24,241 nt of DNA from positions 1-24,241 of the forward strand of contig PFXB01000127.1 of NCBI GenBank assembly GCA_002791435.1, in the 5' to 3' direction. The position numbers and the translations under genes are program-made. Position 1 is the stretch's first letter. Each line of letters starts with the position of its first letter. Positions 11,498 to 24,066 of this stretch are shown here, in pieces. This stretch comes from a candidate division WWE3 bacterium CG_4_9_14_3_um_filter_43_9. GTDB taxonomy: Bacteria > Patescibacteriota > CPR3 > GCA-002780085. The notes beneath the pieces were generated by a model. It was given only the letters and a program-made list of their open reading frames with translations, did no database searches and was not told the DNA's origin.

Positions 11498-12571
11498 ATG
11501 GAATTTCTGCTGGTAGTCTTCATCCCATTCATAACGACTTTAATCTTGACTCCCCTAGTAATGCGGTTGGCTCTCCGATGGGGATTTAAAGATGATCCTC
11601 AAACCCACCACCACCCGGCGATCCTGCACCGTAAAGCCCTGCCTCGCGCCGGAGGATTACCAATTTATATCGCCTTGGTTGTCTCGATTTTGATCTTCTG
11701 CCCTTTGGAAAAACACTTAATCGGCTTAATTTTAGGAGCCACTATTATCGTAATCGACGGACTTTTGGATGATAGATACAACCTTCATCCCTTATTACGT
11801 TTTATCTCGCAATTTGTAGCCGCCGGAATAATCGTCCTCTCCGGGGTCGGGATCACCTACATCACCAATCCTTTCGGCGGACTCATCCGTCTGGATGTCG
11901 TCAATATCACTCTCAACTTTTTCGGCGAACACCATCTCTTGCTTCTGGCTGATCTTTTCGCTCTCTTCTGGATCGTGTGGACGATGAATTTGGTCAATTG
12001 GTCCTCGGGAGTTGACGGACAAATGCCGGGGTTTGTGATTATTGCTGCCGGAACCTTGGCTCTGTTAGCACTTCCGTTTACGACTTATGACGCCAGCCAA
12101 TGGACGGTTATTAAAATCTGTCTGATGGTTGTCGGAGCCACCTTGGCTTTTTTGATTTTTAACTGGCATCCGGCTAAAATCTTGCCGGGAGACAGCGCTT
12201 CCATGCTTTTGGGTTTTTTCTTGGCGGTTCTGGCCATTCTTTCCGGAGGCAAAGTGGCCACCGCAGTTTTGGTTTTAGGAATACCCACTCTGGATGCGGC
12301 CTGGGCAATTTTGCGGAGAGTAAGCAAAAAAAGGCTTCCCATCTGGGGAGACCGGAAACATTTGCACCATCAATTGCTTGATCTGGGTTTGAGTCAAAGA
12401 CAAGTGGCAGTGATCTATTGGATTCTCACGGCAATTTTAGGAAGTGCGGCTTTACTTTTTTCGGGCCGTCAAAAACTGTGGCTCTTGATTGTCTTGGGGG
12501 GACTTTTAGCCTTCTTCTTAATTCTCATCCACCGCTTTATGAAAGCAAAAGCCAAAAAAGTAACAGTATAG
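11498..12571 (+). CDS. Undecaprenyl-phosphate HexNAc-1-phosphate transferase (WecA/TagO/MraY family)
   Basis: PRAGG, GLLDD, N..N...GVDG, FNWHPAKILPGD, DRKHLHHQL motifs; polytopic. Confidence 0.92.
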   Translation: MEFLLVVFIPFITTLILTPLVMRLALRWGFKDDPQTHHHPAILHRKALPRAGGLPIYIALVVSILIFCPLEKHLIGLILGATIIVIDGLLDDRYNLHPLLRFISQFVAAGIIVLSGVGITYITNPFGGLIRLDVVNITLNFFGEHHLLLLADLFALFWIVWTMNLVNWSSGVDGQMPGFVIIAAGTLALLALPFTTYDASQWTVIKICLMVVGATLAFLIFNWHPAKILPGDSASMLLGFFLAVLAILSGGKVATAVLVLGIPTLDAAWAILRRVSKKRLPIWGDRKHLHHQLLDLGLSQRQVAVIYWILTAILGSAALLFSGRQKLWLLIVLGGLLAFFLILIHRFMKAKAKKVTV

Positions 12572-13275: not shown

Positions 13276-13310
13276 TAGACATTATTTTGAACTTGACGTA
13301 TATTGTGATT
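13276..13310 (+). promoter_or_regulatory. Putative promoter, probable leaderless start at ATG 13311
   Basis: TAGACA (13276-13281), 17-bp spacer, TATATT (13299-13304), 6 nt to ATG, no SD. Confidence 0.55.
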
Positions 13311-13856
13311 ATGGAAAAGTTACTCAAGGGAATGTTTTTCCAAGAAATAGTCGATCAGGTTCACGGACAAAAGGGTGAAAAGGCTCTCTGCGAACTGGAA
13401 AGACAGTTCGGCAAGCCACTCACTTTCTCCAACTTCAAAGGATATCCGCTGGAAGATCACCTTAGACTCCTAGAACTAGGCTCCAAAATTATTTTCAAGG
13501 ATAAAGACAGAAAGGAAGCTATCTTTGAGATGGGTAAACTTTCCTGGCTGACTTTTGCCCAAAGCATGGTGGGAAAAACGGTGCTGGCACTGTACGCTAA
13601 AGATCTAAGGAAAACCGCCCTTTCCATTGCCAAACTCTGGGGAATGATAACTAACTTCGGCGTGCGCGAATGTCAAGATTTGGGAGAAAGAAAGGTTAAA
13701 ATCATCATCAAAGAAGATCCGCGTCCACCTGAATATATTGTTGGGGTCCTAAGCGGCGCGGTTGAATTTTTTAAGGCTGTCCCTAAGATAGAAACGAAAG
13801 TGTTCTCATCTGAGCATTGTGAGTTTATCGTCAGCTGGGAAAACCCCCGGACATGA
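13311..13856 (+). CDS. DUF2378 / TIGR02265-like protein (H-NOX/V4R-like fold), paralog 1
   Basis: KGMFF, FKGYP, FAQSMVGK, PRPPEYIVGVLSG and terminal VSW pattern. ATG 13311 is preferred over the track's TTG at 13287 because of the promoter spacing. Confidence 0.75.
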   Translation: MEKLLKGMFFQEIVDQVHGQKGEKALCELERQFGKPLTFSNFKGYPLEDHLRLLELGSKIIFKDKDRKEAIFEMGKLSWLTFAQSMVGKTVLALYAKDLRKTALSIAKLWGMITNFGVRECQDLGERKVKIIIKEDPRPPEYIVGVLSGAVEFFKAVPKIETKVFSSEHCEFIVSWENPRT

Positions 13857-14107: not shown

Positions 14108-15190
14108 TTAAGTTTTGCCCGTCAATTGGTGTAATCTCTTCAAGGCTCTCTTTTCTTCATAATACCCCAGCTTTGCCCATCTGACCGCTTTTTCCAAAAC
14201 CCCGATCGAAGCATCATAGGTTGTTCGCTCCACCGGAAAGGGGTAGCCGTCTTTGCCGCCATGGGCAAAAGCAAAACGGGCCGGGTCGCGAAAGGAAGGG
14301 GCTTGGCCGTAGATTAGTTCGGCAATCAAAGAAAGCGCCCGCAGTGTTTTTGGACCGACACCTTTTGCCGACAACAAGGCTTCAAAATCTTGAGGTTTGG
14401 TTTCTTTGACGAATTGTAAAATTTTTTTGAGTCTGCCAAGATCAAAATCCTCGGCATAGATCGGGTGGTGGAAAGGCAGTTTAAGGGTATCGATTTTTTG
14501 GAAATGACTGACGAGCCCGGCAGGCGAGATTTCATTTACGAGTTTTGTTTCCAACTTTCTGATCCCCTGGCTTTGAGAAGCGATTAAGTTTAAAACGGCG
14601 GTTTCTTTCCGATCGCAGCAGATCGCGTTTTGCGGCTCCTCTACAAAACTTTTTACCGTTTCCGAAATCCAATGATAGCGCCGCGCCATCTTATTTTTCT
14701 CATTCATACCCTGCTGAATCACAATCCATTTCCCCTGATCGGTAAAAATGAAATTATGATGATAAAGCTGGTAACCATCCTGCAGGGCACTGCTGTCGAC
14801 TTTGGCCGACATTTTGGAAGCGTACACCAAGGGCGCGGCATCAAAGCCGTATTGTTGGCCGAAAGCTTCAATCTCGTGCGGAGTTTTTCTGGAAGTTGCT
14901 CCCTTGCCGCCGGCCATAAAAAAACCTGTTTCTTTTTCCAAGCCTTTCAACCCTTCCTTGAGAGCTCCGGTCGTGGTGGTGGTTAATCCTGAAGAATGCC
15001 AGTCAAAACCCAAAACACAACCTAAAGCCTGAAACCAGAAGGGATCGGATAATTTGTAAAGTAGATCAGAAACGCCAAAATCCTCAATGATATATAAAGC
15101 GATCTGCCGCGCCAACGGTACCATGCGTTCGAAAAGCCATTTGGGAGCACTGCCAAAATGTAAGGGCAGCTGCGCCGTTCCGACTTTCAT
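14108..15190 (-). CDS. DUF763 domain-containing protein
   Basis: LPLH.G.AP.WL..RM, LSDPFWFQALGCVLGFDWHSSGLTT, GGKG, DGYQLYHH, FAHGGKDG.PFPV signature. Confidence 0.92.
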   Translation of the reverse strand: MKVGTAQLPLHFGSAPKWLFERMVPLARQIALYIIEDFGVSDLLYKLSDPFWFQALGCVLGFDWHSSGLTTTTTGALKEGLKGLEKETGFFMAGGKGATSRKTPHEIEAFGQQYGFDAAPLVYASKMSAKVDSSALQDGYQLYHHNFIFTDQGKWIVIQQGMNEKNKMARRYHWISETVKSFVEEPQNAICCDRKETAVLNLIASQSQGIRKLETKLVNEISPAGLVSHFQKIDTLKLPFHHPIYAEDFDLGRLKKILQFVKETKPQDFEALLSAKGVGPKTLRALSLIAELIYGQAPSFRDPARFAFAHGGKDGYPFPVERTTYDASIGVLEKAVRWAKLGYYEEKRALKRLHQLTGKT

Positions 15191-15643: not shown

Positions 15644-16493
15644 GGGTAATTCCTGATTTTAGCCACTAAAATCGATCACTTTTTTAAACAAACGGTCTGT
15701 TTGCAATTTGACATCCAACCTTCGGTAATTATACCTCCAAACATACTCACCAAGAAAGAGAGGAAGATATTTTCTTTTAACGCCTCCCTTGGCCGCCAAC
15801 TTTCTTTTTAGGTATCCCCAAAATCCTTCCAGTCCATTAATGTGATTTTTGCCCCGGACATATTCCTTTGCTCCGTGTTCTACCGTTCGGTGGACATATC
15901 CTTTAGCCGCTAGTCCGGTGTAAGCTCTCCAAGTATCGGAACAAACCCTTGAGCCGGCCTTGACTTTCCTGGTAATGATCGGCAGCAAATCTATCGCTTC
16001 GGCATCCTCAATCAACCTGGCAAAGACCTTGCCTTGACGGGTTAAAATGCCAAACACGGGTTGTTTTGTTGTTCCGAAGCCTCGTTTGCTTTCCGATTCT
16101 TTTTTAAGCTGACTTTTCCGTTTGTTTTTCTTCTGCCCTCCCAGATAGGTTTCATCTACCTCTACTGTTCCGGAGAAAACTCCGGGAACATCTTGCACCA
16201 TTACTTTTCTGGCTATACCCACCGTTTTCTCCACCGAGTAATGGCTAACCCCGTTTGTGCACTGATGGTCCTTAGGCTATGCCCGAGAACAAACCAAAAC
16301 AGAATCTTTTTCCAAACCGTTTTCATTAGCCCTAATCAGGCAATCTTTGGTTTCCACCCGTATCGGCAGTTTTTACACCGTTTTTTACTCCTTCTGACAG
16401 AGTAAAACTTTCTGTTTTGACACCGAGGACAAGAATATCCCTTCATAACGACCTAATTATATCATTGTTGGTGGTCGTTTTCAGGACTTACCC
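15644..16493 (-). mobile_element. IS1595-family insertion sequence, 850 bp, degenerate
   Basis: Imperfect TIRs GGGTAATTCCTGA.. / ..TCAGGACTTACCC; direct repeat ATTAGAA at 15637-15643 and 16494-16500; encloses an ISXO2-type DDE transposase. Confidence 0.88.
15659..16446 (-). pseudogene. IS1595 (ISXO2-like) transposase pseudogene
   Basis: ATG 16446 gives zinc ribbon CPRC..CKNC. In-frame TGA at 16336-16338 and a frameshift near the C4 run 16249-16252 precede the DDE domain (VEVDETYLGG, CSDTWRAY, VEHG, HINGLEGFW, YLPLFLGEY.WRYN). Confidence 0.88.
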
Positions 16494-16668: not shown

Positions 16669-17217
16669 ATGGAAATCGATTATGATAAAAACCAGGTCCC
16701 TGGATATTTCCTGCTGGAAGACGTGAATTTCGTCAGAAAGGAAAAAGGGCCGTTCGGTATCACCAAACTTAAGAAAATATTTCCGGAAATCGACATTGAC
16801 AAGATCTCGCCCTTCCGCAAATATCCTCTAAAACACGAACTTGCGCTCTTGAAAGCCGCCGCTATTATAATTTACGGGGACGATTCGCCGACTTCTTGGG
16901 CCAAGCTTGGCCGGCACGATTTTGAAACCATGGCCAATTCAAATTTAGGCAAAGTTCTAATCTCTCTTTTTGGCAAAGATGTGGTTAAATTAATCAAAAA
17001 CGCCAGCCGGTTTTTTCACTTCTTCGCGCCGTTTATCACCTTTAGTTATCAAGAATTAGACAAACATCATGCCATCTTCACCATTGAGAACGATCCCTAT
17101 CCCAGGGAATATTATCTGGGATACTTCCTGGCTCTGAGAGATTTTATTGGAAGTCATGGGATAATCACGGTTAAGGATGCCGGCGGCAGAAAATATATTT
17201 ATGAAGTCTATTGGTAA
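16669..17217 (+). CDS. DUF2378 / TIGR02265-like protein, paralog 2
   Basis: VPGYFL, FRKYP, LG..DFET..NS.LGK, PYPREYYLG, terminal YEVYW; aligns with paralogs 1 and 3. Confidence 0.7.
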   Translation: MEIDYDKNQVPGYFLLEDVNFVRKEKGPFGITKLKKIFPEIDIDKISPFRKYPLKHELALLKAAAIIIYGDDSPTSWAKLGRHDFETMANSNLGKVLISLFGKDVVKLIKNASRFFHFFAPFITFSYQELDKHHAIFTIENDPYPREYYLGYFLALRDFIGSHGIITVKDAGGRKYIYEVYW

Positions 17218-17271: not shown

Positions 17272-17814
17272 ATGGAAAGCGAAAAAGAAAAAGTTCCTGG
17301 TTTCTTTTTAATCGAGGATGCCAATTTTGTCAAAAAGATGAAAGGTCCACGCGGCATTGAAAAACTAAAAAAATTGCTGCCAAGTCTTAATCTTGACAAA
17401 CTCTCGCCGGTACGCAAATATCCTTTGACGCAAGAAATCGAGATGTTGCGCGCGACAGCCAAAGTGGTTTATGGAGATGATTCGCCTGCCTCCTGGGAAA
17501 AATTGGGGCATCATGATTTTGAAACCGTCAGAGATTCAAGTTTGGGAAAAATCTTGCTGTCTTTATGGGGCAACAGCTTCGTCAATCTGGTTAAAAACGG
17601 TAGCCGTCTGTTTTTCTTCTTCGCTCCTTTTGTGAAATTTACGTACGAAAATCTTACCGAGCAGGGAGCAATTTTTACCGTTGAAAATAATCCCTATCCC
17701 AAAGAATACTACCTAGGTCTTTTTAAATCCATCCAAAATATGGTTAAAGCCGGCGGAGAGATAACCGTGACTAAGGTGAACCCCAAAAAACATGTCTATC
17801 GTCTCAAATATTAA
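17272..17814 (+). CDS. DUF2378 / TIGR02265-like protein, paralog 3
   Basis: Clear tandem paralog of 16669-17217 (VPGFFL, RKYPL, YGDDSP.SW.KLG.HDFET, FAPF, NPYPKEYYLG); GGAG SD upstream. Confidence 0.7.
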   Translation: MESEKEKVPGFFLIEDANFVKKMKGPRGIEKLKKLLPSLNLDKLSPVRKYPLTQEIEMLRATAKVVYGDDSPASWEKLGHHDFETVRDSSLGKILLSLWGNSFVNLVKNGSRLFFFFAPFVKFTYENLTEQGAIFTVENNPYPKEYYLGLFKSIQNMVKAGGEITVTKVNPKKHVYRLKY

Positions 17815-17817
17815 CTG

Positions 17818-18561
17818 CTACAGGTTAAGCATGGCCAACATCAGAAGGATTCCTAAGCCGATGCCTAAAAACTGGTTTAAAGCTTGTGAAGGATGAAGTT
17901 CTTTATGGAGTTCAGGCAAAAGATCGGAGCCGGCGATATACAAAAATCCGCCGGCCGTTGCCGGCAGAATATAAAGATAGATGTCTTCAATTTTGATTCT
18001 CACCAAAATCACAACCAAAACCCCCAGCAAAGCTGCCAGTGCCGAAATAAAGTTATAAAGCAACGCTTTTTTACGGGAATAGCCGGCGTGAAGCAAGACC
18101 CCAAAATCGCCGATCTCCTGTGGAATTTCATGGGCTAAAACGGCCAGAGTGGTTGTGATCCCCAAAGTAAAGTTGGCTAAAAAACTGCCGGCAATCAAAA
18201 CCCCATCCAGAAAATTGTGCAGTCCGTCACCGATCAAATTCATGGTGGCAATGCTGCTGCTATGCTCTTTACATTCAGGGTCGTGACAGTGGTGCCACTT
18301 GACCATTTTTTCCAACGTAAAAAAGAGAAAAATGCCGCCCAGAATCAGGAGAGAAATTTTGATCTCCAACCCCATCCTCTCGTAAATATCTGGAATAAGG
18401 TGCAGGAAAACGTCTCCGAAAAGAACGCCGGTGGCAAAAGAGACTAAAAAGGAGATGATCTTTTTTAAATCCTCTTTTTGGAGCGGTAGGAACAAAACCC
18501 CGACTAGGGAGATTGAACTGACAATCAAAACCGCCACCAAAGAATAAACTGCATTAACCAT
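17818..18561 (-). CDS. ZIP (ZupT-like) divalent metal transporter
   Basis: FLHLIPD, His/Cys loop HHCHDPECKEH, GDGLHNFLDG, HEIPQEIGDFGVLL, SDLLPEL. Confidence 0.95.
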   Translation of the reverse strand: MVNAVYSLVAVLIVSSISLVGVLFLPLQKEDLKKIISFLVSFATGVLFGDVFLHLIPDIYERMGLEIKISLLILGGIFLFFTLEKMVKWHHCHDPECKEHSSSIATMNLIGDGLHNFLDGVLIAGSFLANFTLGITTTLAVLAHEIPQEIGDFGVLLHAGYSRKKALLYNFISALAALLGVLVVILVRIKIEDIYLYILPATAGGFLYIAGSDLLPELHKELHPSQALNQFLGIGLGILLMLAMLNL

Positions 18562-18576
18562 AAAAAATAGTATACC

Positions 18577-18600
18577 AGCTTCACTTTAGAAAGTGAAGCT
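18577..18600. promoter_or_regulatory. Perfect 11-2-11 inverted repeat upstream of the ZIP gene (operator or terminator)
   Basis: AGCTTCACTTT-AG-AAAGTGAAGCT, directly upstream of TG-n-TATACT (- strand), which lies 7 nt before the ZIP ATG. Confidence 0.55.
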
Positions 18601-18718
18601 ATGTAATTCTTTCTCCTAAAATCATTTTAGGAGGCTTGACTAAGCAGCGGTTGAATTCTTTGAAGAAGTGCTTGAGACCGGATTGGGTGGCTTTGCCGTG
18701 GGTTTGCGCGTTGGCCAC
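18598..18718 (-). pseudogene. Orphan 3' fragment of an allele of the ABM-like gene
   Basis: 121-bp direct repeat of 19626-19746 with 6 mismatches; encodes VANAQTHGKATQSGLKHFFKEFNRCLVKPPKMILGERIT*. Confidence 0.9.
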
Positions 18719-18940
18719 AAGAAATCTCCACCCATCGGTAGACAGAAAGCCGTAGGGTAAAAATTGTATTCAGAAAAAACTAATCACGACACAACGTTTT
18801 GGCTTTCAAGGCTAGATTTTCCAAGTAGATATTAAATACGAGAAAAAAGGCAATCACCCGCCCCTGGATTTATAAAAGAAACAATTTTGCCATACTTGTT
18901 GTTGGGAAGGTTGTTAGCTTTAGTGCGGATTTTCCGGCGA

Positions 18941-19573
18941 TTAATGACTATGGACAAAACCGGCAGCTTCTTCAACATTGACTGTTTTGGTTTCACGATC
19001 ATCTCCGTATTGGACCAATAAATTTCCACCCGTATCCATTACTAGCCCTTTCCTGCCGGAAGAACCGGTTACACTAACTTGGGCTTCGCTTGTATAAACC
19101 ATTTTAGGATTATCTGGACTGAGGACATAATAACCACGGTCTTTTAACCATCCTGCTTTTCTTGGATCGTCGGTGACGGGTAAAACGATTTCATCGGGTT
19201 GAAGTCCATCTGTTCGCGGTTCAGAAACTCCTCTTCCCAATAAAACTAAATGTTGGATGTCAGTAATATTGACGGTAGCCACAGGGGTTCCGTCCTGCAC
19301 AACAGTAGCGTACAGTTCCGGACTGTCTTTGCCAAGCAAACCCAGGGCCGTCAGACTTATTTTTAAACCCGGGACATCCAATTTTTCACCGCTCAACTCA
19401 TATTCAAAAACACCCAAAGAAGCTGCGGGTCTTTCTCCTTCCGACGCCAGTGTCTTTTCTACTTCAGCTGGTTCAGGAGTAACCCCCTCCGGTCCTTTAC
19501 CACCACTTAAAACAGCAGCAGCTCCGGCAAGAGTGGCGACTTTTAGAAACGTCTTTCTGCTTATTTTCGGCAT
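18941..19573 (-). CDS. Hypothetical exported protein with Tat-like N-terminus
   Basis: SRKTFLK followed by a hydrophobic stretch; strong AAGGAGG SD. Confidence 0.75.
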   Translation of the reverse strand: MPKISRKTFLKVATLAGAAAVLSGGKGPEGVTPEPAEVEKTLASEGERPAASLGVFEYELSGEKLDVPGLKISLTALGLLGKDSPELYATVVQDGTPVATVNITDIQHLVLLGRGVSEPRTDGLQPDEIVLPVTDDPRKAGWLKDRGYYVLSPDNPKMVYTSEAQVSVTGSSGRKGLVMDTGGNLLVQYGDDRETKTVNVEEAAGFVHSH

Positions 19574-19626
19574 AATATTCCTCCTTCTTTTTGTCTTTTC
19601 TTTTATTTTATCATATTCTATAACTG

Positions 19627-19980
19627 CTATATAATTCTTTCTCCTAAAATCATTTTAGGAGGCTTGACTAAGCAGCGGTTGAATTCTTTGAAGAAGTGCT
19701 TGAGACCGGATTTCGTAGCTTTGCCGTGGGTTTGCGCGTTGTCGACTTCCCAATATAAAACGTAGGTGAGAGCCTCTGGTTTACGCGTAAGCTTGATGGC
19801 CGGCTCGCCTCTTTTGGCGCCGCCGAAACTGGTCGGCCGGTGAGTCCGCTTCAGATAGCGCACGTCAAAGACTCCCGGAAATTCGGTATGGTGTTTGATA
19901 ACTTTGCGGATCAGTTCTTCGAACATCTCTTCTTTTTCTACTCTGACGTCATAGATGCAAACTTCAACAAAATGAGACAT
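19627..19980 (-). CDS. Small protein, probable dimeric alpha+beta barrel (ABM/YciI-like)
   Basis: ATG 19980 with AGGAG SD (preferred to the track's 20094 start); pattern EV..YDV..EKEEMFEE....PGV.DVR...Y..YWE...H. Confidence 0.6.
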   Translation of the reverse strand: MSHFVEVCIYDVRVEKEEMFEELIRKVIKHHTEFPGVFDVRYLKRTHRPTSFGGAKRGEPAIKLTRKPEALTYVLYWEVDNAQTHGKATKSGLKHFFKEFNRCLVKPPKMILGERII

Positions 19981-20008
19981 GTTTTTACTCCTTTGGACAA
20001 TCAAAAGG

Positions 20009-20428
20009 TTAAATTGCAGTTTCAAAAATTTCCGGCGGTTGTTTCCCAAAATCGCTGTATCGTAACCAAAAAGGGGCGATTCTAAACCACACACCCGCGG
20101 GCGACTCGAAATAGTCTTTCCACTCGGGATGAATATTCAGGGTATATTCTTTGGCTGCCCTTGCCTCTTTGCCGTAAAGTGCGCAGACTTTGCCGTCAAG
20201 CTGAACAGTCGGGTCATTTTTCAACCCGCCAATAACGAGTGCCACTTGATTATTTTCTTTAATGTTTGGATATTTCCGAGTATTTGTCTCGGTAAAAACA
20301 TACATCTGAAAGTTGTTCTGAATGGTATAAACCAAAACTGCCGCCTCTGGTTTGCCTTCAAGACTTGCCGTGGCTAAAACACACAAGTCATTCTTTTTTA
20401 AAAACTCAAGCACGTCTTTGCTGGTCAT
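20009..20428 (-). CDS. Pyridoxamine 5'-phosphate oxidase-like FMN-binding protein
   Basis: CVLATAS.EGKPEAA, TRKYPNIKENNQVALVI, VQLDG motifs. Confidence 0.88.
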   Translation of the reverse strand: MTSKDVLEFLKKNDLCVLATASLEGKPEAAVLVYTIQNNFQMYVFTETNTRKYPNIKENNQVALVIGGLKNDPTVQLDGKVCALYGKEARAAKEYTLNIHPEWKDYFESPAGVWFRIAPFWLRYSDFGKQPPEIFETAI

Positions 20429-20454: not shown

Positions 20455-20880
20455 TTACGGCGCTGCTTTTTTGGCTCTTTTGGCTCTTAGTTCAGTCAAT
20501 CCTTTTGCTTCCAGCTCGTCTGCTTTTCTGCGGGCTTCTAAAAATTCCTTATCTTTTGCAAGTCTTCTAAACCACTCACTCTCATAGAAATCTTTGAGGG
20601 TGGCTTTGGCGGATTGAAGATAAGCCACAATTTCCGGGTCACCAGCATGTTCAGGATAATAATCAAACTCAGGAACCGCTCCGTGATATTTTTGAGCCTG
20701 TGGACTTGCGGAGAGTAAATTAGATTCAACCGTAACATCTCGGTTAACATTGCCTTTATGGCAACAATCCTCGAAATCCAAAATCGCCTGGTCTGGGTAC
20801 CCTAATTCAATTCCATCCTCTAAAATTTCCATTATGGTTTCTGGTAAAATTAAACCGTCTTGTTGAGCTGCTTTAAGCAA
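20455..20880 (-). CDS. Hypothetical protein; true start uncertain (frame is open upstream)
   Basis: Protein-like ORF co-oriented with neighbours; the reading frame continues upstream of the track's TTG. Confidence 0.55.
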   Translation of the reverse strand: MLKAAQQDGLILPETIMEILEDGIELGYPDQAILDFEDCCHKGNVNRDVTVESNLLSASPQAQKYHGAVPEFDYYPEHAGDPEIVAYLQSAKATLKDFYESEWFRRLAKDKEFLEARRKADELEAKGLTELRAKRAKKAAP

Positions 20881-21246
20881 AGAACGCTCTTCTTGAGACC
20901 ATGCCTTAAATCCTCCAAATCCTTCTCGTGCATCAAATCGTTCAACACCTGGAATCTGAGTATGTTTTGTTTTCCATTCTATTCCTTTTATTTTGGTGAG
21001 GAGACTGATTTCGTAGTGAGATAAAAAGACAAAAGGAATAAATCTTCTATCCTTTTATCCCGTCATGAAACTGAGTTCTGAAACCAGTTCCGAGTATTGC
21101 GCTTCAACCTTAAGATTGGAGATATGACAAAATTGCCCAAAGCAATTTAAAATCAAAATTAGCTCGCTTGGGCGAGCAAAAGGAAACCTGCCTGCATAAG
21201 CAGGTACCATGAGCGTCAGGCTCAGGGAGATTCATATTTTGTACTT

Positions 21247-21699
21247 TCAATGTTGACCCGTAAGTTTGTCTCTAATGCTCCTCGCTAGATAGAATACTCT
21301 TTCCGCTCTTAGTAAAGATTCATTTTCCTGCTCCGTAACCGCTCCTGGGGGGAATGTCTCAATTATTCGCTCTCCGCCCATTTCATCCCTTGCCATCCAA
21401 AGTGCTATCTCTCCTTGCGATTCCAGATAGTCAGCCACCGCCAACCCTCCTTCGTCTATTGCCACTCTATTATCTAACCAATCTAATACGGTAGTATCTC
21501 TCTTCAAATATGCCTCAAACCTTTGCCGCAACAATCTTCCTTGCACAGAGATTGCATTGTCCCATTTACTAAGACCGGCGTTCCACGCTCCTATTGAAAG
21601 TTCAATCGTCCCTCTTTGTCTTTTCAAGATTCCTCTAGCTTCATGGACAATTTCGGAAAATTCTGCCTTTTCGGCAACAGATGAAAGTTGGTCGGGCAT
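21247..21699 (-). CDS. Hypothetical protein
   Basis: 150-aa ORF with GGAG SD; no family recognised. Confidence 0.65.
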   Translation of the reverse strand: MPDQLSSVAEKAEFSEIVHEARGILKRQRGTIELSIGAWNAGLSKWDNAISVQGRLLRQRFEAYLKRDTTVLDWLDNRVAIDEGGLAVADYLESQGEIALWMARDEMGGERIIETFPPGAVTEQENESLLRAERVFYLARSIRDKLTGQH

Positions 21700-21761: not shown

Positions 21762-21842
21762 TCAATTTTTCTTGCGTTCCGTATAATACTTTCTTCCCCT
21801 CAGCTCATCCGGTAACAAATTCTTATCTTTATCCGGGTACAT
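21762..21842 (-). pseudogene. Orphan C-terminal gene fragment, RarA/MgsA-like (copy 1)
   Basis: Encodes MYPDKDKNLLPDELRGRKYYTERKKN*; LPxEL.G.+YY resembles the RarA C-terminus. Confidence 0.6.
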
Positions 21843-21870: not shown

Positions 21871-22425
21871 TCACCAATACCCTTTTCCGTAATGAAAGGT
21901 GTTTTTGCTCTGCATGACATAATCGTAAACTGCTTGCGAACAAAGCGGGATAAACATGGTTCCTGCATCGTATTTAATTTCACCTTTAATGTTTTCAAAA
22001 GAAATTTTCCTCATCATCGTCTTAAAACCTACTTTTTCGTAGAGTAGATAGGCTTCCTTTTTCAAGTCAACATTAAAGCAGGCTATATCGCACTTTTCCT
22101 TCTTCAGTAATTTTAATCCTTCTTTCAACATCTTCGTTGCAATACCTTTTCTTCTCATTGATTTTGCAACGCATACTCCACCCGTCCCGCCAAAAACTAT
22201 CTCCTTTTCGCCAAATTTAATTTTTCGTTTGAATAAACCGAGCATTCCGACAATTTTTCTGCCTTGATATGCAAACAGCCTCCCAAACTCTTGAGAGATA
22301 AAATCTTCTTCTATTGACTGCCTGTCTACATCACTAAAACACTCCTTTTGCAGCTTCAAGATAGAACTTTCTTGAAAGGGAGTAAGTTTCTTTTCTACGA
22401 TAAACTTAATTTCAATTTCATTCAT
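21871..22425 (-). CDS. GNAT-family N-acetyltransferase
   Basis: GGVCVAKSMRRKGIATKML (motif A, R-x-x-G-x-A), LYEKVGF. Confidence 0.92.
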   Translation of the reverse strand: MNEIEIKFIVEKKLTPFQESSILKLQKECFSDVDRQSIEEDFISQEFGRLFAYQGRKIVGMLGLFKRKIKFGEKEIVFGGTGGVCVAKSMRRKGIATKMLKEGLKLLKKEKCDIACFNVDLKKEAYLLYEKVGFKTMMRKISFENIKGEIKYDAGTMFIPLCSQAVYDYVMQSKNTFHYGKGYW

Positions 22426-22497
22426 GATGTTTCTTTTTTCTTATAATACTTCCTTCCTTTTAACTCCTCGGGCAACAGGTTGTTTTTTCGGGTAGAG
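22422..22497 (-). pseudogene. Orphan C-terminal gene fragment, RarA/MgsA-like (copy 2)
   Basis: Encodes LYPKK/(frameshift)/NLLPEELKGRKYYKKKETS*; its TGA overlaps the GNAT ATG as ATGA. Confidence 0.6.
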
Positions 22498-22692: not shown

Positions 22693-24066
22693 CTAATTAC
22701 CGGATAATGCCTCTAGCAATTTTTTGGTAGCTCGATATTTGATATACTTACCCTCTCTTTCCCCAAGCACCAAGCCCACTTTCTCCAATTCTTTTATGTC
22801 CTTGGCGGCCGTTTGTCTGGAAATACTGCTCAGAATCGCATGAGAAGTAACGGTGGTATGCGTATTACTATCTGAAGCTAGATAATGCAGCAAATGTTTT
22901 TGTCTGTCTGTTAAATATAAATTTGTACTGATGATCTTGTCTATTTCCTTGTTTTCTGAAATTTTTCTAACGACGTATTCATTGAAATCATTGAGGGCTT
23001 GCATTATTTTCCTGATATGAAAATCAAAAAAATAAGTCGCGTCATATGCGTCTTGTTCAGAATAAATATATGCCATTGCATACTGAATAGGAGCTTTTTT
23101 GATAGTTAAAGAAATCGGTAGATACATAAACGTCCAATAATTCTTTCTAAGCAAATACCAGTAAAAAAGAGATCTTGCCAATCTGCCATTTCCATCTGTA
23201 AAGGGATGCAAGTAGCCAAACCAAAAATGTAAAAAAATGGCTTTAATGATTGGATGTAAAAATTTATTATCGTCCGCATCATTCGCATAATCAATTAGTT
23301 TCTCTATTTCTTCTTTGACAAACTTTTCTGCAGGCGGAATATGGGTTATATATTCTTGAGATCCAATTTGGCCCTGTACGACTATTCCGTCTGAATTTTT
23401 TCTTAATCTTCCCTGTTCTTCCCTCTTTATTGTTTTTTCAGTTAACATTCTATGTAACTCGAATAATAATTCTTTCGATAAAGGTTGATTTTTATAAACC
23501 TCATCAATTTTAAAAATCGTATTGTAATTATTTAAAATCATTTGTTCATCTTTATTCCTTGGCTCTCTTTTTTCAACAATCATCTTTTTGGCGGCTTGCC
23601 GTGTTGTATGTGCTCCTTCTAGTTGACTTGAGGCTATAGCTTCTTCTAAAATACCTCTTGAGATAAATTTCTGCTTATTTGAATCCGACAAAACGTCCAT
23701 CGAAGTAAATACTTGACCACCGGAACTAACATCAATTTTATGTAAAAATTCATCAACGTAAGACAATCTAATCCATTTAAAATAATCTCCTTTTTCACTT
23801 TTTATCGGTGTATCCCGCGAAACAATAGTCCTAAATTGCTTAATAAAAAACCAGGCTTCTTCAGAAGTAAAACCATGAGGAGTTTCTTTATGCTTTACTT
23901 CGTCCCAATATAAATATTGCGGCTCATTTCTTCTCTGTAAAAACTGAGCTAATTCTGCTATATTTTCAGTCTTGCCGAATATTTTCCCTCTATCTACTCT
24001 TTTTAAATCAGGCTTATCTAGCTTGAAATAGGGTAAAGTTAAATTTTTACTTGTCATATCTGTCAT
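22693..24066 (-). CDS. Fic-family protein with N-terminal inhibitory motif and C-terminal winged-helix domain
   Basis: HPFTDGNGRLAR catalytic motif; SSQLEG matches (S/T)xxxE(G/N); C-terminal ISRQTAAKDIKELEKVG HTH-like segment. Start may be 24057. Confidence 0.95.
   Translation of the reverse strand: MTDMTSKNLTLPYFKLDKPDLKRVDRGKIFGKTENIAELAQFLQRRNEPQYLYWDEVKHKETPHGFTSEEAWFFIKQFRTIVSRDTPIKSEKGDYFKWIRLSYVDEFLHKIDVSSGGQVFTSMDVLSDSNKQKFISRGILEEAIASSQLEGAHTTRQAAKKMIVEKREPRNKDEQMILNNYNTIFKIDEVYKNQPLSKELLFELHRMLTEKTIKREEQGRLRKNSDGIVVQGQIGSQEYITHIPPAEKFVKEEIEKLIDYANDADDNKFLHPIIKAIFLHFWFGYLHPFTDGNGRLARSLFYWYLLRKNYWTFMYLPISLTIKKAPIQYAMAYIYSEQDAYDATYFFDFHIRKIMQALNDFNEYVVRKISENKEIDKIISTNLYLTDRQKHLLHYLASDSNTHTTVTSHAILSSISRQTAAKDIKELEKVGLVLGEREGKYIKYRATKKLLEALSGN

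Follow-up and report, generated by a model that had tools for sequence, protein, structure and literature searches.

A single-gene module between two copies of a gene's 3' end, and its probable presence/absence polymorphism, in a groundwater WWE3 bacterium

The window that we analyzed is the whole 24.2-kb contig PFXB01000127.1 (24,241 nucleotides), part of a 0.93-Mb metagenome-assembled genome, 88% complete, of an uncultured groundwater bacterium of candidate division WWE3 (assembly GCA_002791435.1). Our subject is a compact block of genes on its minus strand in which, in the order of transcription, a PNPOx-like gene is followed by a gene for an ABM-like protein, a spacer, a 210-amino-acid open reading frame (ORF) that we call the cargo gene, 222 nt of non-coding DNA, a second copy of the 3' end of the ABM-like gene (the distal tail), a hairpin, and the gene for a ZIP-family metal transporter (Table 1). 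The cargo gene and one copy of the repeated tail form a 1028-bp module that is absent from six assembled contigs and present in all others that we read for the ABM, cargo and ZIP proteins of this population. Judged from these assemblies, the aquifer population most likely carries both a filled and an empty site, and we consider it justified to speak of a presence/absence polymorphism.

The repeated gene tail and the segment between its copies

A repeat search of the window returned one two-copy family of direct repeats, 121 nt long and 95% identical, with a spacing of 1028 nt. Each copy consists of the last 39 codons of the 117-amino-acid ABM-like gene, the TAG stop codon and 1 further base. 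When repeat positions are numbered along the coding (minus) strand, direct comparison places six mismatches at positions 3, 5, 30, 33, 34 and 116 and leaves an identical core of 81 nt at positions 35 to 115; read in frame, three of the mismatches are synonymous (in V, A and T codons) and three are non-synonymous (D>A, K>Q and I>T). An earlier note, made from the letters of the sequence alone, had described this repeat with the same length, mismatches, core and included stop codon, and had likened its geometry to that of attL and attR sites with an ORF resembling a substrate of twin-arginine translocation (Tat) between them. We found the repeat again in every one of these respects, and the geometry is correct: the 210-amino-acid Tat-like ORF sits between the copies. 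The same note had allowed that the distal fragment could belong to a longer decayed paralog reaching beyond position 18718, and there we found no homology; similarity between the copies ends abruptly past that position. Since BLAST alignments start only at repeat position 6, the homology proper may span 116 nt. With an E value of 1.8e-50 within the 0.93-Mb genome, the match greatly exceeds what chance would give; the two copies are the only ones genome-wide, and there is a single full ABM gene. A 21-nt palindrome, perfect over 10+10 nt around a 1-nt center, lies inside the core of both copies (18613 to 18633 and 19641 to 19661).

The two copies have unequal standing. The proximal copy is needed for an intact ABM-like protein, because the repeat encodes the last helix, the last strand and the conserved PPKMILGER tail, and it does not vary among 15 population sequences. 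A stop codon stands ahead of the distal copy, which is therefore an orphan. The ABM-like protein has 89 homologues at 60 to 75% identity in Patescibacteria, other bacteria and archaea, with a conserved C terminus, PPK(M/I)ILGER. It has no Pfam or NCBIfam match, and its AlphaFold model (pLDDT 95) is matched by Foldseek at probability 1.0, with TM scores of 0.64 to 0.85 (up to 0.85 by target), to the structures 2omo, 2gff and 3qmq. The model thus predicts a ferredoxin-like beta-alpha-beta protein of the ABM, or dimeric alpha+beta-barrel, type, which is a statement of fold membership and not of Pfam family.

Between the stop codon of the ABM-like gene and the distal tail lies an insert that begins with the spacer, which is missing from the empty-site contigs, and ends at an illegitimate junction with the distal tail at 18718/18719, placed with an uncertainty of about 5 nt. 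A terminator-like hairpin follows the cargo gene within the insert; terminator-type sites were found in a number no greater than in shuffled sequences. Downstream of the distal tail, a hairpin at 18577 to 18597 has a 10-bp stem and a fold z score of -4.5, and a promoter-like -35/-10 pair at 18597 to 18569 matches the consensus at 9 of 12 positions and has a TG. The ZIP gene starts 37 nt past the stop codon of the distal tail.

The cargo protein is a near-orphan. It has no Pfam match, no NCBIfam identification, and no convincing fold match in the PDB or the AlphaFold clusters, and its own model is beta-rich with a pLDDT of 74. A word-based search of 5.8 billion proteins returned only its own cluster, and an exhaustive HMMER search of 1.8 billion representatives returned five remote homologues at 28 to 38% identity. 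All five have the canonical twin-arginine (RR) Tat motif. In the window protein the motif is S-R-K-T-F-L-K, with RK in place of RR; the Tat signal model TIGR01409 scores 14.2 bits on it, under the 16.7-bit cut-off. TatC (PF00902) and TatA (PF02416) were not found in the genome, whose 88% completeness leaves their absence unproven. The cargo looks foreign because its homologues carry RR, the window copy carries RK, and no TatC or TatA was found; it probably came from a Tat-bearing organism. Searching plasmids with the cargo by tblastn gave no match, and the locus of its nearest homologue (L036) lacks an ABM gene and shows similarity in the cargo alone. Our best guess for the cargo product is an exported or surface protein. 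Five of the six population single-nucleotide polymorphisms (SNPs) in the cargo ORF are non-synonymous (F9S, G27R, T75K, T90A and V101G); two common ones, T75K and T90A, are found in every combination with the SNPs at 18743 and 18788.

Table 1. Positions of the features of the locus, in window coordinates
Feature	Positions	Strand	Remarks
PNPOx-like gene	20009-20428	-	Upstream neighbor of the ABM-like gene
ABM-like gene, 117 aa and TAG stop	19627-19980	-	ORF; whole in filled and empty alleles
Proximal repeat copy	19626-19746	-	End of the functional ABM-like gene: 39 codons, stop, 1 nt; encodes last helix and strand of the fold
Insert spacer, 52 nt	19574-19625	-	AT-rich (21% GC), GGAGG ribosome-binding site before the cargo gene; from sequence and GC content
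Cargo gene, 210 aa	18941-19573	-	Exported-looking, beta-rich; ORF with N-terminal signal ISRKTFLK...
Non-coding 3' part of the insert, 222 nt	18719-18940	-	Holds the common population SNPs 18743 and 18788
Terminator-like hairpin and T-run	18846-18865	-	Inside the insert, 76 nt past the cargo stop; consensus match only
Distal repeat copy	18598-18718	-	Orphan ABM 3' tail, in frame with its own TAG; stop codon ahead, no 5' body
Region between tail stop and ZIP start	18562-18597	-	Hairpin and promoter-like site; same sequence in empty contigs
ZIP-family metal transporter gene	17818-18561	-	PF02535, E = 6.6e-50; downstream neighbor in both alleles and the outgroup; start at 18561
Orphan RarA/MgsA C-terminal tail	21783-21836	-	Directly upstream of a 150-aa ORF; tblastn with the RarA of L011, 72% over 18 aa, E = 4e-4
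Second orphan RarA/MgsA C-terminal tail	22437-22493	-	Directly upstream of a GNAT gene; tblastn, 74% over 19 aa, E = 6e-4

Filled and empty sites in the aquifer population

The earlier note had suggested looking for an empty allele, in which the ABM-like gene would be joined directly to the hairpin and the ZIP gene, and such an allele was found in six assembled contigs from six samples. The 90% cluster of the ABM protein contains a member (P0092) that is identical to the window protein except for its end, ...GERIT, whose final codon is that of the distal copy. It is encoded by these six contigs, all with the order PNPOx, ABM, 37 nt including the hairpin, ZIP and DUF2378 and without a cargo gene. 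Three of them belong to MEGAHIT k141 assemblies in ENA (ERZ27293413, ERZ27293337 and ERZ27293334) and three to JGI assemblies (3300025017, 3300025014 and 3300004196); their lengths range from 858 to 2161 bp, with 0.4 to 1.9 kb of flank on both sides. BLAST shows these flanks to match the window exactly, for as much as 1.38 kb on the upstream side and 1.88 kb on the downstream side. Where the filled site has two repeat copies, the empty contigs have one hybrid repeat, of the proximal type at positions 30, 33 and 34 and of the distal type at position 116. One of the six (L027) carries a private SNP at 19995.

Every other ABM, cargo or ZIP contig that we read (22 encoding ABM, 22 encoding ZIP, and further look-ups) has the filled site, always with a spacing of 1028 nt; these come from at least 19 distinct records in JGI, ENA and NCBI, GCA_002780085.1 among them. 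A more distant contig from Logan (L033), about 87% identical in nucleotides over the ABM gene, serves as an outgroup and reads ABM, 165 nt, ZIP and DUF2378, with no insert. It follows that the order without the module is the ancestral one and that the module was inserted.

Some contigs end within or near the repeat. One of 1057 bp (L034) has a 29-nt terminal overlap, and 1057 - 29 = 1028 made it a candidate circular form of the module; we rejected it, as its ends lie 60 nt past both diagnostic SNPs, which is the geometry of a k = 61 unitig. Four filled contigs from four samples (L007, L008, L010 and L040), all with distal allele B (described below), run unbroken through the proximal copy and end at 18604 to 18606, at repeat position 115, one base before the only 3' diagnostic site of the tail. 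A trivial branch of the assembly graph may account for these ends, or there may be a second continuation there, such as a tandem duplication or a circle junction.

The surroundings of the block have features of their own. Three stand-alone DUF2378 paralogues (13287 to 13856, 16669 to 17217 and 17272 to 17814) occur in this 0.93-Mb genome; two of them stand in tandem directly after the ZIP gene, an arrangement that the outgroup L033 has kept. On the minus strand, 1.6 kb past the ZIP-DUF2378 block, an ORF resembling an IS1595-family DDE transposase (15659 to 16234) is called as 180 to 191 amino acids across contigs; this is less than a full transposase would need, and the ORF showed no link to the module. 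The ORF upstream of PNPOx (20455 to 20880) encodes 141 amino acids in the window and is called as 141, 125 or 108 amino acids depending on the contig, with a 1-nt deletion at 20829/20830 in two contigs (L017 and L024). The two orphan RarA tails (Table 1) share the geometry of the ABM tail before ZIP, so tail-leaving insertions have recurred in this accessory region; RarA itself lies past the end of the window and is seen in another contig (L011) at 187 to 1425. No Rfam match was found in the window.

How the module may have come and gone

The account that we favor, and to which we would give roughly an even chance of being right, is an insertion with long target duplication in a population where the empty allele now most likely comes from recombination between the tails. 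A 907-bp foreign segment would have entered directly after the stop codon of the ABM-like gene, bringing with it the spacer and its ribosome-binding site, the cargo gene, the terminator-like hairpin and 127 nt more, and its insertion would have duplicated the last 116 to 121 bases of the ABM-like gene. Such a duplication would leave the ABM-like gene whole and let the ZIP gene keep its original 116 upstream nt, its hairpin and its promoter-like site; the intact ABM-like gene and the preserved upstream context of ZIP may be the selective rationale for the duplication. The tails could later recombine, by RecA crossover, single-strand annealing or slippage within an identical core of 81 to 91 nt, and exactly 1028 bp would be lost. 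For the cell this loss would be one-way, and regain would need recombination with the DNA of a filled cell.

We infer both the direction of this change, as deletion, and the enzymes involved. The genome encodes RecA, and a ComEC-type uptake channel is seen in part at a contig end. No recombinase was found in the insert, in the window or in the 16-kb syntenic loci, two tyrosine recombinase genes lie on other contigs, and the locus bears no sign of site-specific (att/integrase) recombination. A perfect core of 81 to 91 nt in copies 0.9 kb apart is a standard substrate for RecA-dependent or RecA-independent deletion (PMC4627823). The earlier note had proposed excision of the module by a RecA-type crossover, which would make the exported protein a switchable trait; the presence/absence part of that proposal is borne out at the level of assemblies, and 'switchable' claims too much, since deletion by RecA or slippage is one-way and regain needs DNA from a filled cell.

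The states of the repeat in the different alleles (Table 2) bear on whether the empty allele was gained by loss of the module or never held it. The distal tail is the most variable stretch of the locus (nucleotide diversity, pi, 1.8%), and its two alleles differ at repeat positions 24, 30, 33 and 34 (window 18695, 18689, 18686 and 18685), that is, at four sites within 11 nt. Distal allele B equals the proximal copy at three of the four sites (30, 33 and 34) and the outgroup at all four. This pattern looks like conversion or a multi-base event, and it suggests that the two copies interact or decay freely. Separately, we note that the window's own distal allele has C on the coding strand at all four differing sites.

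Table 2. States of the repeat at its diagnostic positions, on the coding strand
Sequence	Position 24	Positions 30, 33, 34	Last codon (position 116)
Outgroup L033	T	T, G, A	ATA
Proximal copy	C	T, G, A	ATA
Distal allele B	T	T, G, A	ACA
Distal allele A (window)	C	C, C, C	ACA
Empty allele	C	T, G, A	ACA

These states fit two histories equally well, each of which needs two mutations. In one of them, duplication would have occurred in situ in an ancestor with T24 and ATA, each copy would have undergone one change, and the empty allele would be a deletion recombinant. In the other, the recipient would have had C24 and ACA, as today's empty allele has, and a circular or 'ends-in' donor with outgroup-like states would have entered by crossover in the core.

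Diversity separates the two somewhat better. In a set of 15 long sequences, segregating sites number 8 in the 1149 nt of the module (pi 0.36%), four of the eight forming one cluster, and 5 in the 4452 nt of the flanks (pi 0.01 to 0.02%); the module is thus more than 10 times as diverse as its flanks (binomial p = 0.0015). Filled alleles differ among themselves by 0.2 to 0.4% within the module. Together with the identical flanks of empty and filled sites, these values lean toward a recent derivation of the empty allele from the filled one and away from an old, separate empty lineage. If the empty allele is real, a deletion-derived origin is in our judgment somewhat more probable than an ancestral one. 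Variation along the contigs at large is patchy: SNPs between contigs cluster tightly at 11734 to 11797, 14719 to 14740, 21203 to 21689, 21950 to 22077, 22124 to 22204 and 22851 to 22972, with kilobases free of SNPs between the patches and, in one example, 15 SNPs within 81 nt in one contig only. Such patchiness suggests frequent short recombination imports or strain-mosaic assembly.

Several observations weigh against the account that we favor. The empty junction is known from short assembled contigs only. The Logan k = 31 contigs of four runs all hold the module, break at the repeat and show no joints, and the module-to-flank word depth in these runs is 0.76 to 1.1, a noisy measure by which the empty allele would be at most a minority in them. 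All samples belong to a single aquifer's time series, and some reads may be common to the ENA and JGI assemblies; the six occurrences of the empty allele are thus possibly not independent. A deletion recombinant and an ancestral empty allele are expected to have the same sequence, the outgroup states (T24, ATA) fit both histories equally, and the excess diversity of the module could stem from short imported patches and not from age.

Among the alternatives, the one to which we would give the most room, as possible but distinctly less probable, is that the repeats are a passive scar and that the empty contigs represent a never-filled ancestral allele still segregating, in a gain under way or a balanced polymorphism, with no excision at all. 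The empty order is indeed ancestral, as the outgroup indicates, and the empty sequence (C24, ACA) is exactly what the recipient would need to have been; a T24/ATA donor and a crossover in the core would yield the proximal copy (C24, ATA) and distal allele B (T24, ACA) without homoplasy, and frequent short-patched recombination could homogenize the flanks. Against this stand the flanks themselves, identical between empty and filled sites over about 3 kb while filled alleles differ by 0.2 to 0.4% in the module, and the perfect core of 81 to 91 nt in a cell with RecA, from which some deletion is expected anyway (PMC4627823). We consider it unlikely that the empty allele is an artefact of assembly, in which the tails were collapsed, the 1-kb loop was dropped, and the insertion is in truth fixed in the species. 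All six empty contigs are short (858 to 2161 bp), assemblies do break at the repeat, as the k = 61 unitig and the four contigs ending at position 115 illustrate, older JGI pipelines joined contigs by overlap, and the Logan word depth in four runs shows no clear deficit of the module. The same junction comes, however, from six samples and at least two pipelines; three of the contigs were built by MEGAHIT at k141, where k exceeds the identical core and junction-spanning reads should exist; the 0.4 to 1.9 kb of flank on each side is not bubble-sized; the private SNP at 19995 suggests a distinct genotype; no reciprocal chimera was seen among the cluster proteins; and a related species truly has the empty order.

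Rather doubtful, and in our view a shade less probable than an assembly artefact, is a recombinase-free cycle that would build and reshape the accessory region: single-gene modules would loop out between duplicated tails as small circles, neighboring cells would be transformed by them, and re-entry through one crossover within a conserved gene's tail would leave stacked orphan tails. Its possible traces are the three orphan tails within 4 kb, one of ABM and two of RarA, and the contigs that end before the last diagnostic site. It is very improbable that the tails are the attL and attR of a site-specific element, either a remnant resembling a cis-mobilizable element (CIME) or a Xer-exploiting one, moved in trans by a tyrosine recombinase and perhaps at the palindrome. 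The geometry at a gene's 3' end is attL/attR-like, the core contains a 21-nt palindrome, two tyrosine recombinase genes exist elsewhere in the genome, and CIMEs by definition keep attL and attR without an integrase (PMC6323972). No recombinase was found in or beside the module, however; the repeat, at 116 to 121 nt, exceeds typical att cores; the 1-nt center of the palindrome is not that of a dif or att core; and searches of 60 relatives, of plasmids and of 1.8 billion proteins turned up no related element at this or any other site. The palindrome moreover arises from the conservation of the PPKMILGE codons and is almost complete in unrelated lineages (L005 and L033), and as a recombination site we rejected it on that ground. 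Hardly credible, finally, is the idea that a second ABM paralogue once stood in tandem, lost its 5' two-thirds by decay or deletion and left the distal tail, with the Tat-like gene always between the two. The tail is in frame, has its own stop codon and is 95% identical to the proximal copy; yet no leftover similarity exists upstream of 18718, the genome has one full ABM gene, just one ABM gene, next to ZIP, is present in the outgroup and in the empty allele, and 95% identity with an abrupt edge is not the mark of gradual decay.

Comparison with known insertion and deletion systems

The mechanism that we favor, insertion with long target duplication, is already known, and this locus reveals no new one. 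What it would offer is a natural example of a tiny-genome bacterium that gains and loses one gene for a surface or exported protein at a place without evident mobile-element machinery, and it would extend the class of long target duplications past restriction-modification cargo and past cultured, competent pathogens. The presence or absence of 1028 bp is also a simple marker for strain dynamics in aquifer time series, to be used with the caution that assemblies of this species break, and may collapse, at the repeat.

Three other kinds of event share features with the locus. Integrative elements and CIMEs (PMC6323972) likewise duplicate the 3' end of a gene and leave the target intact between attL/attR-like copies, with no integrase in the module; here, in contrast, there is no integrase or relic of one, no conserved att core and no related element, and the repeat simply copies coding sequence. 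Homology-facilitated illegitimate recombination (HFIR) in transformation (PMC3240628) also places foreign DNA beside a conserved anchor gene with one sharp illegitimate junction, which here is 18718/18719; classical HFIR, however, replaces recipient DNA without duplication, and two tails need a circular or 'ends-in' intermediate. Deletion between direct repeats (PMC4627823; PMC4948707) agrees with the locus in its repeats of about 100 nt lying 0.9 kb apart, in the one hybrid repeat and in the exact loss of 1028 bp; the difference is that here the event would be read from sequences alone and an ancestral allele would look identical.

The closest likeness is to insertion with long target duplication; for this class we follow the published descriptions (Nobusato et al. 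2000, Gene 259:99; Furuta, Abe and Kobayashi 2010, NAR 38:2428, PMC2853133). Inserts of this class have no mobility genes and are bounded by direct repeats longer than 30 bp (46 to 423 bp) that occur as one copy where a relative has the site empty; in many cases the repeats extend across a start or stop codon, and the hosts are mostly competent species (PMC2853133). Our locus has repeats of 121 nt, a single repeat with conserved flanks at the empty site of assembled contigs, and a 907-nt insert, well under 20 kb, with one ORF and no match to a mobility gene by Pfam, NCBIfam or fold; the repeat is unique in the genome. As in the class, the repeat spans a stop codon and leaves the gene intact, and genes for DNA uptake and recombination are present. 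The published surveys chose their cases for restriction-modification cargo, and DNA breakage by the cargo and amplification of the repeats were proposed for them, whereas the cargo here is a single exported-looking protein of 210 amino acids and no restriction-modification system. The published cases also compare two sequenced strains; here the host is a small-genome, uncultured groundwater bacterium, and both the filled and the empty site come from one natural population.

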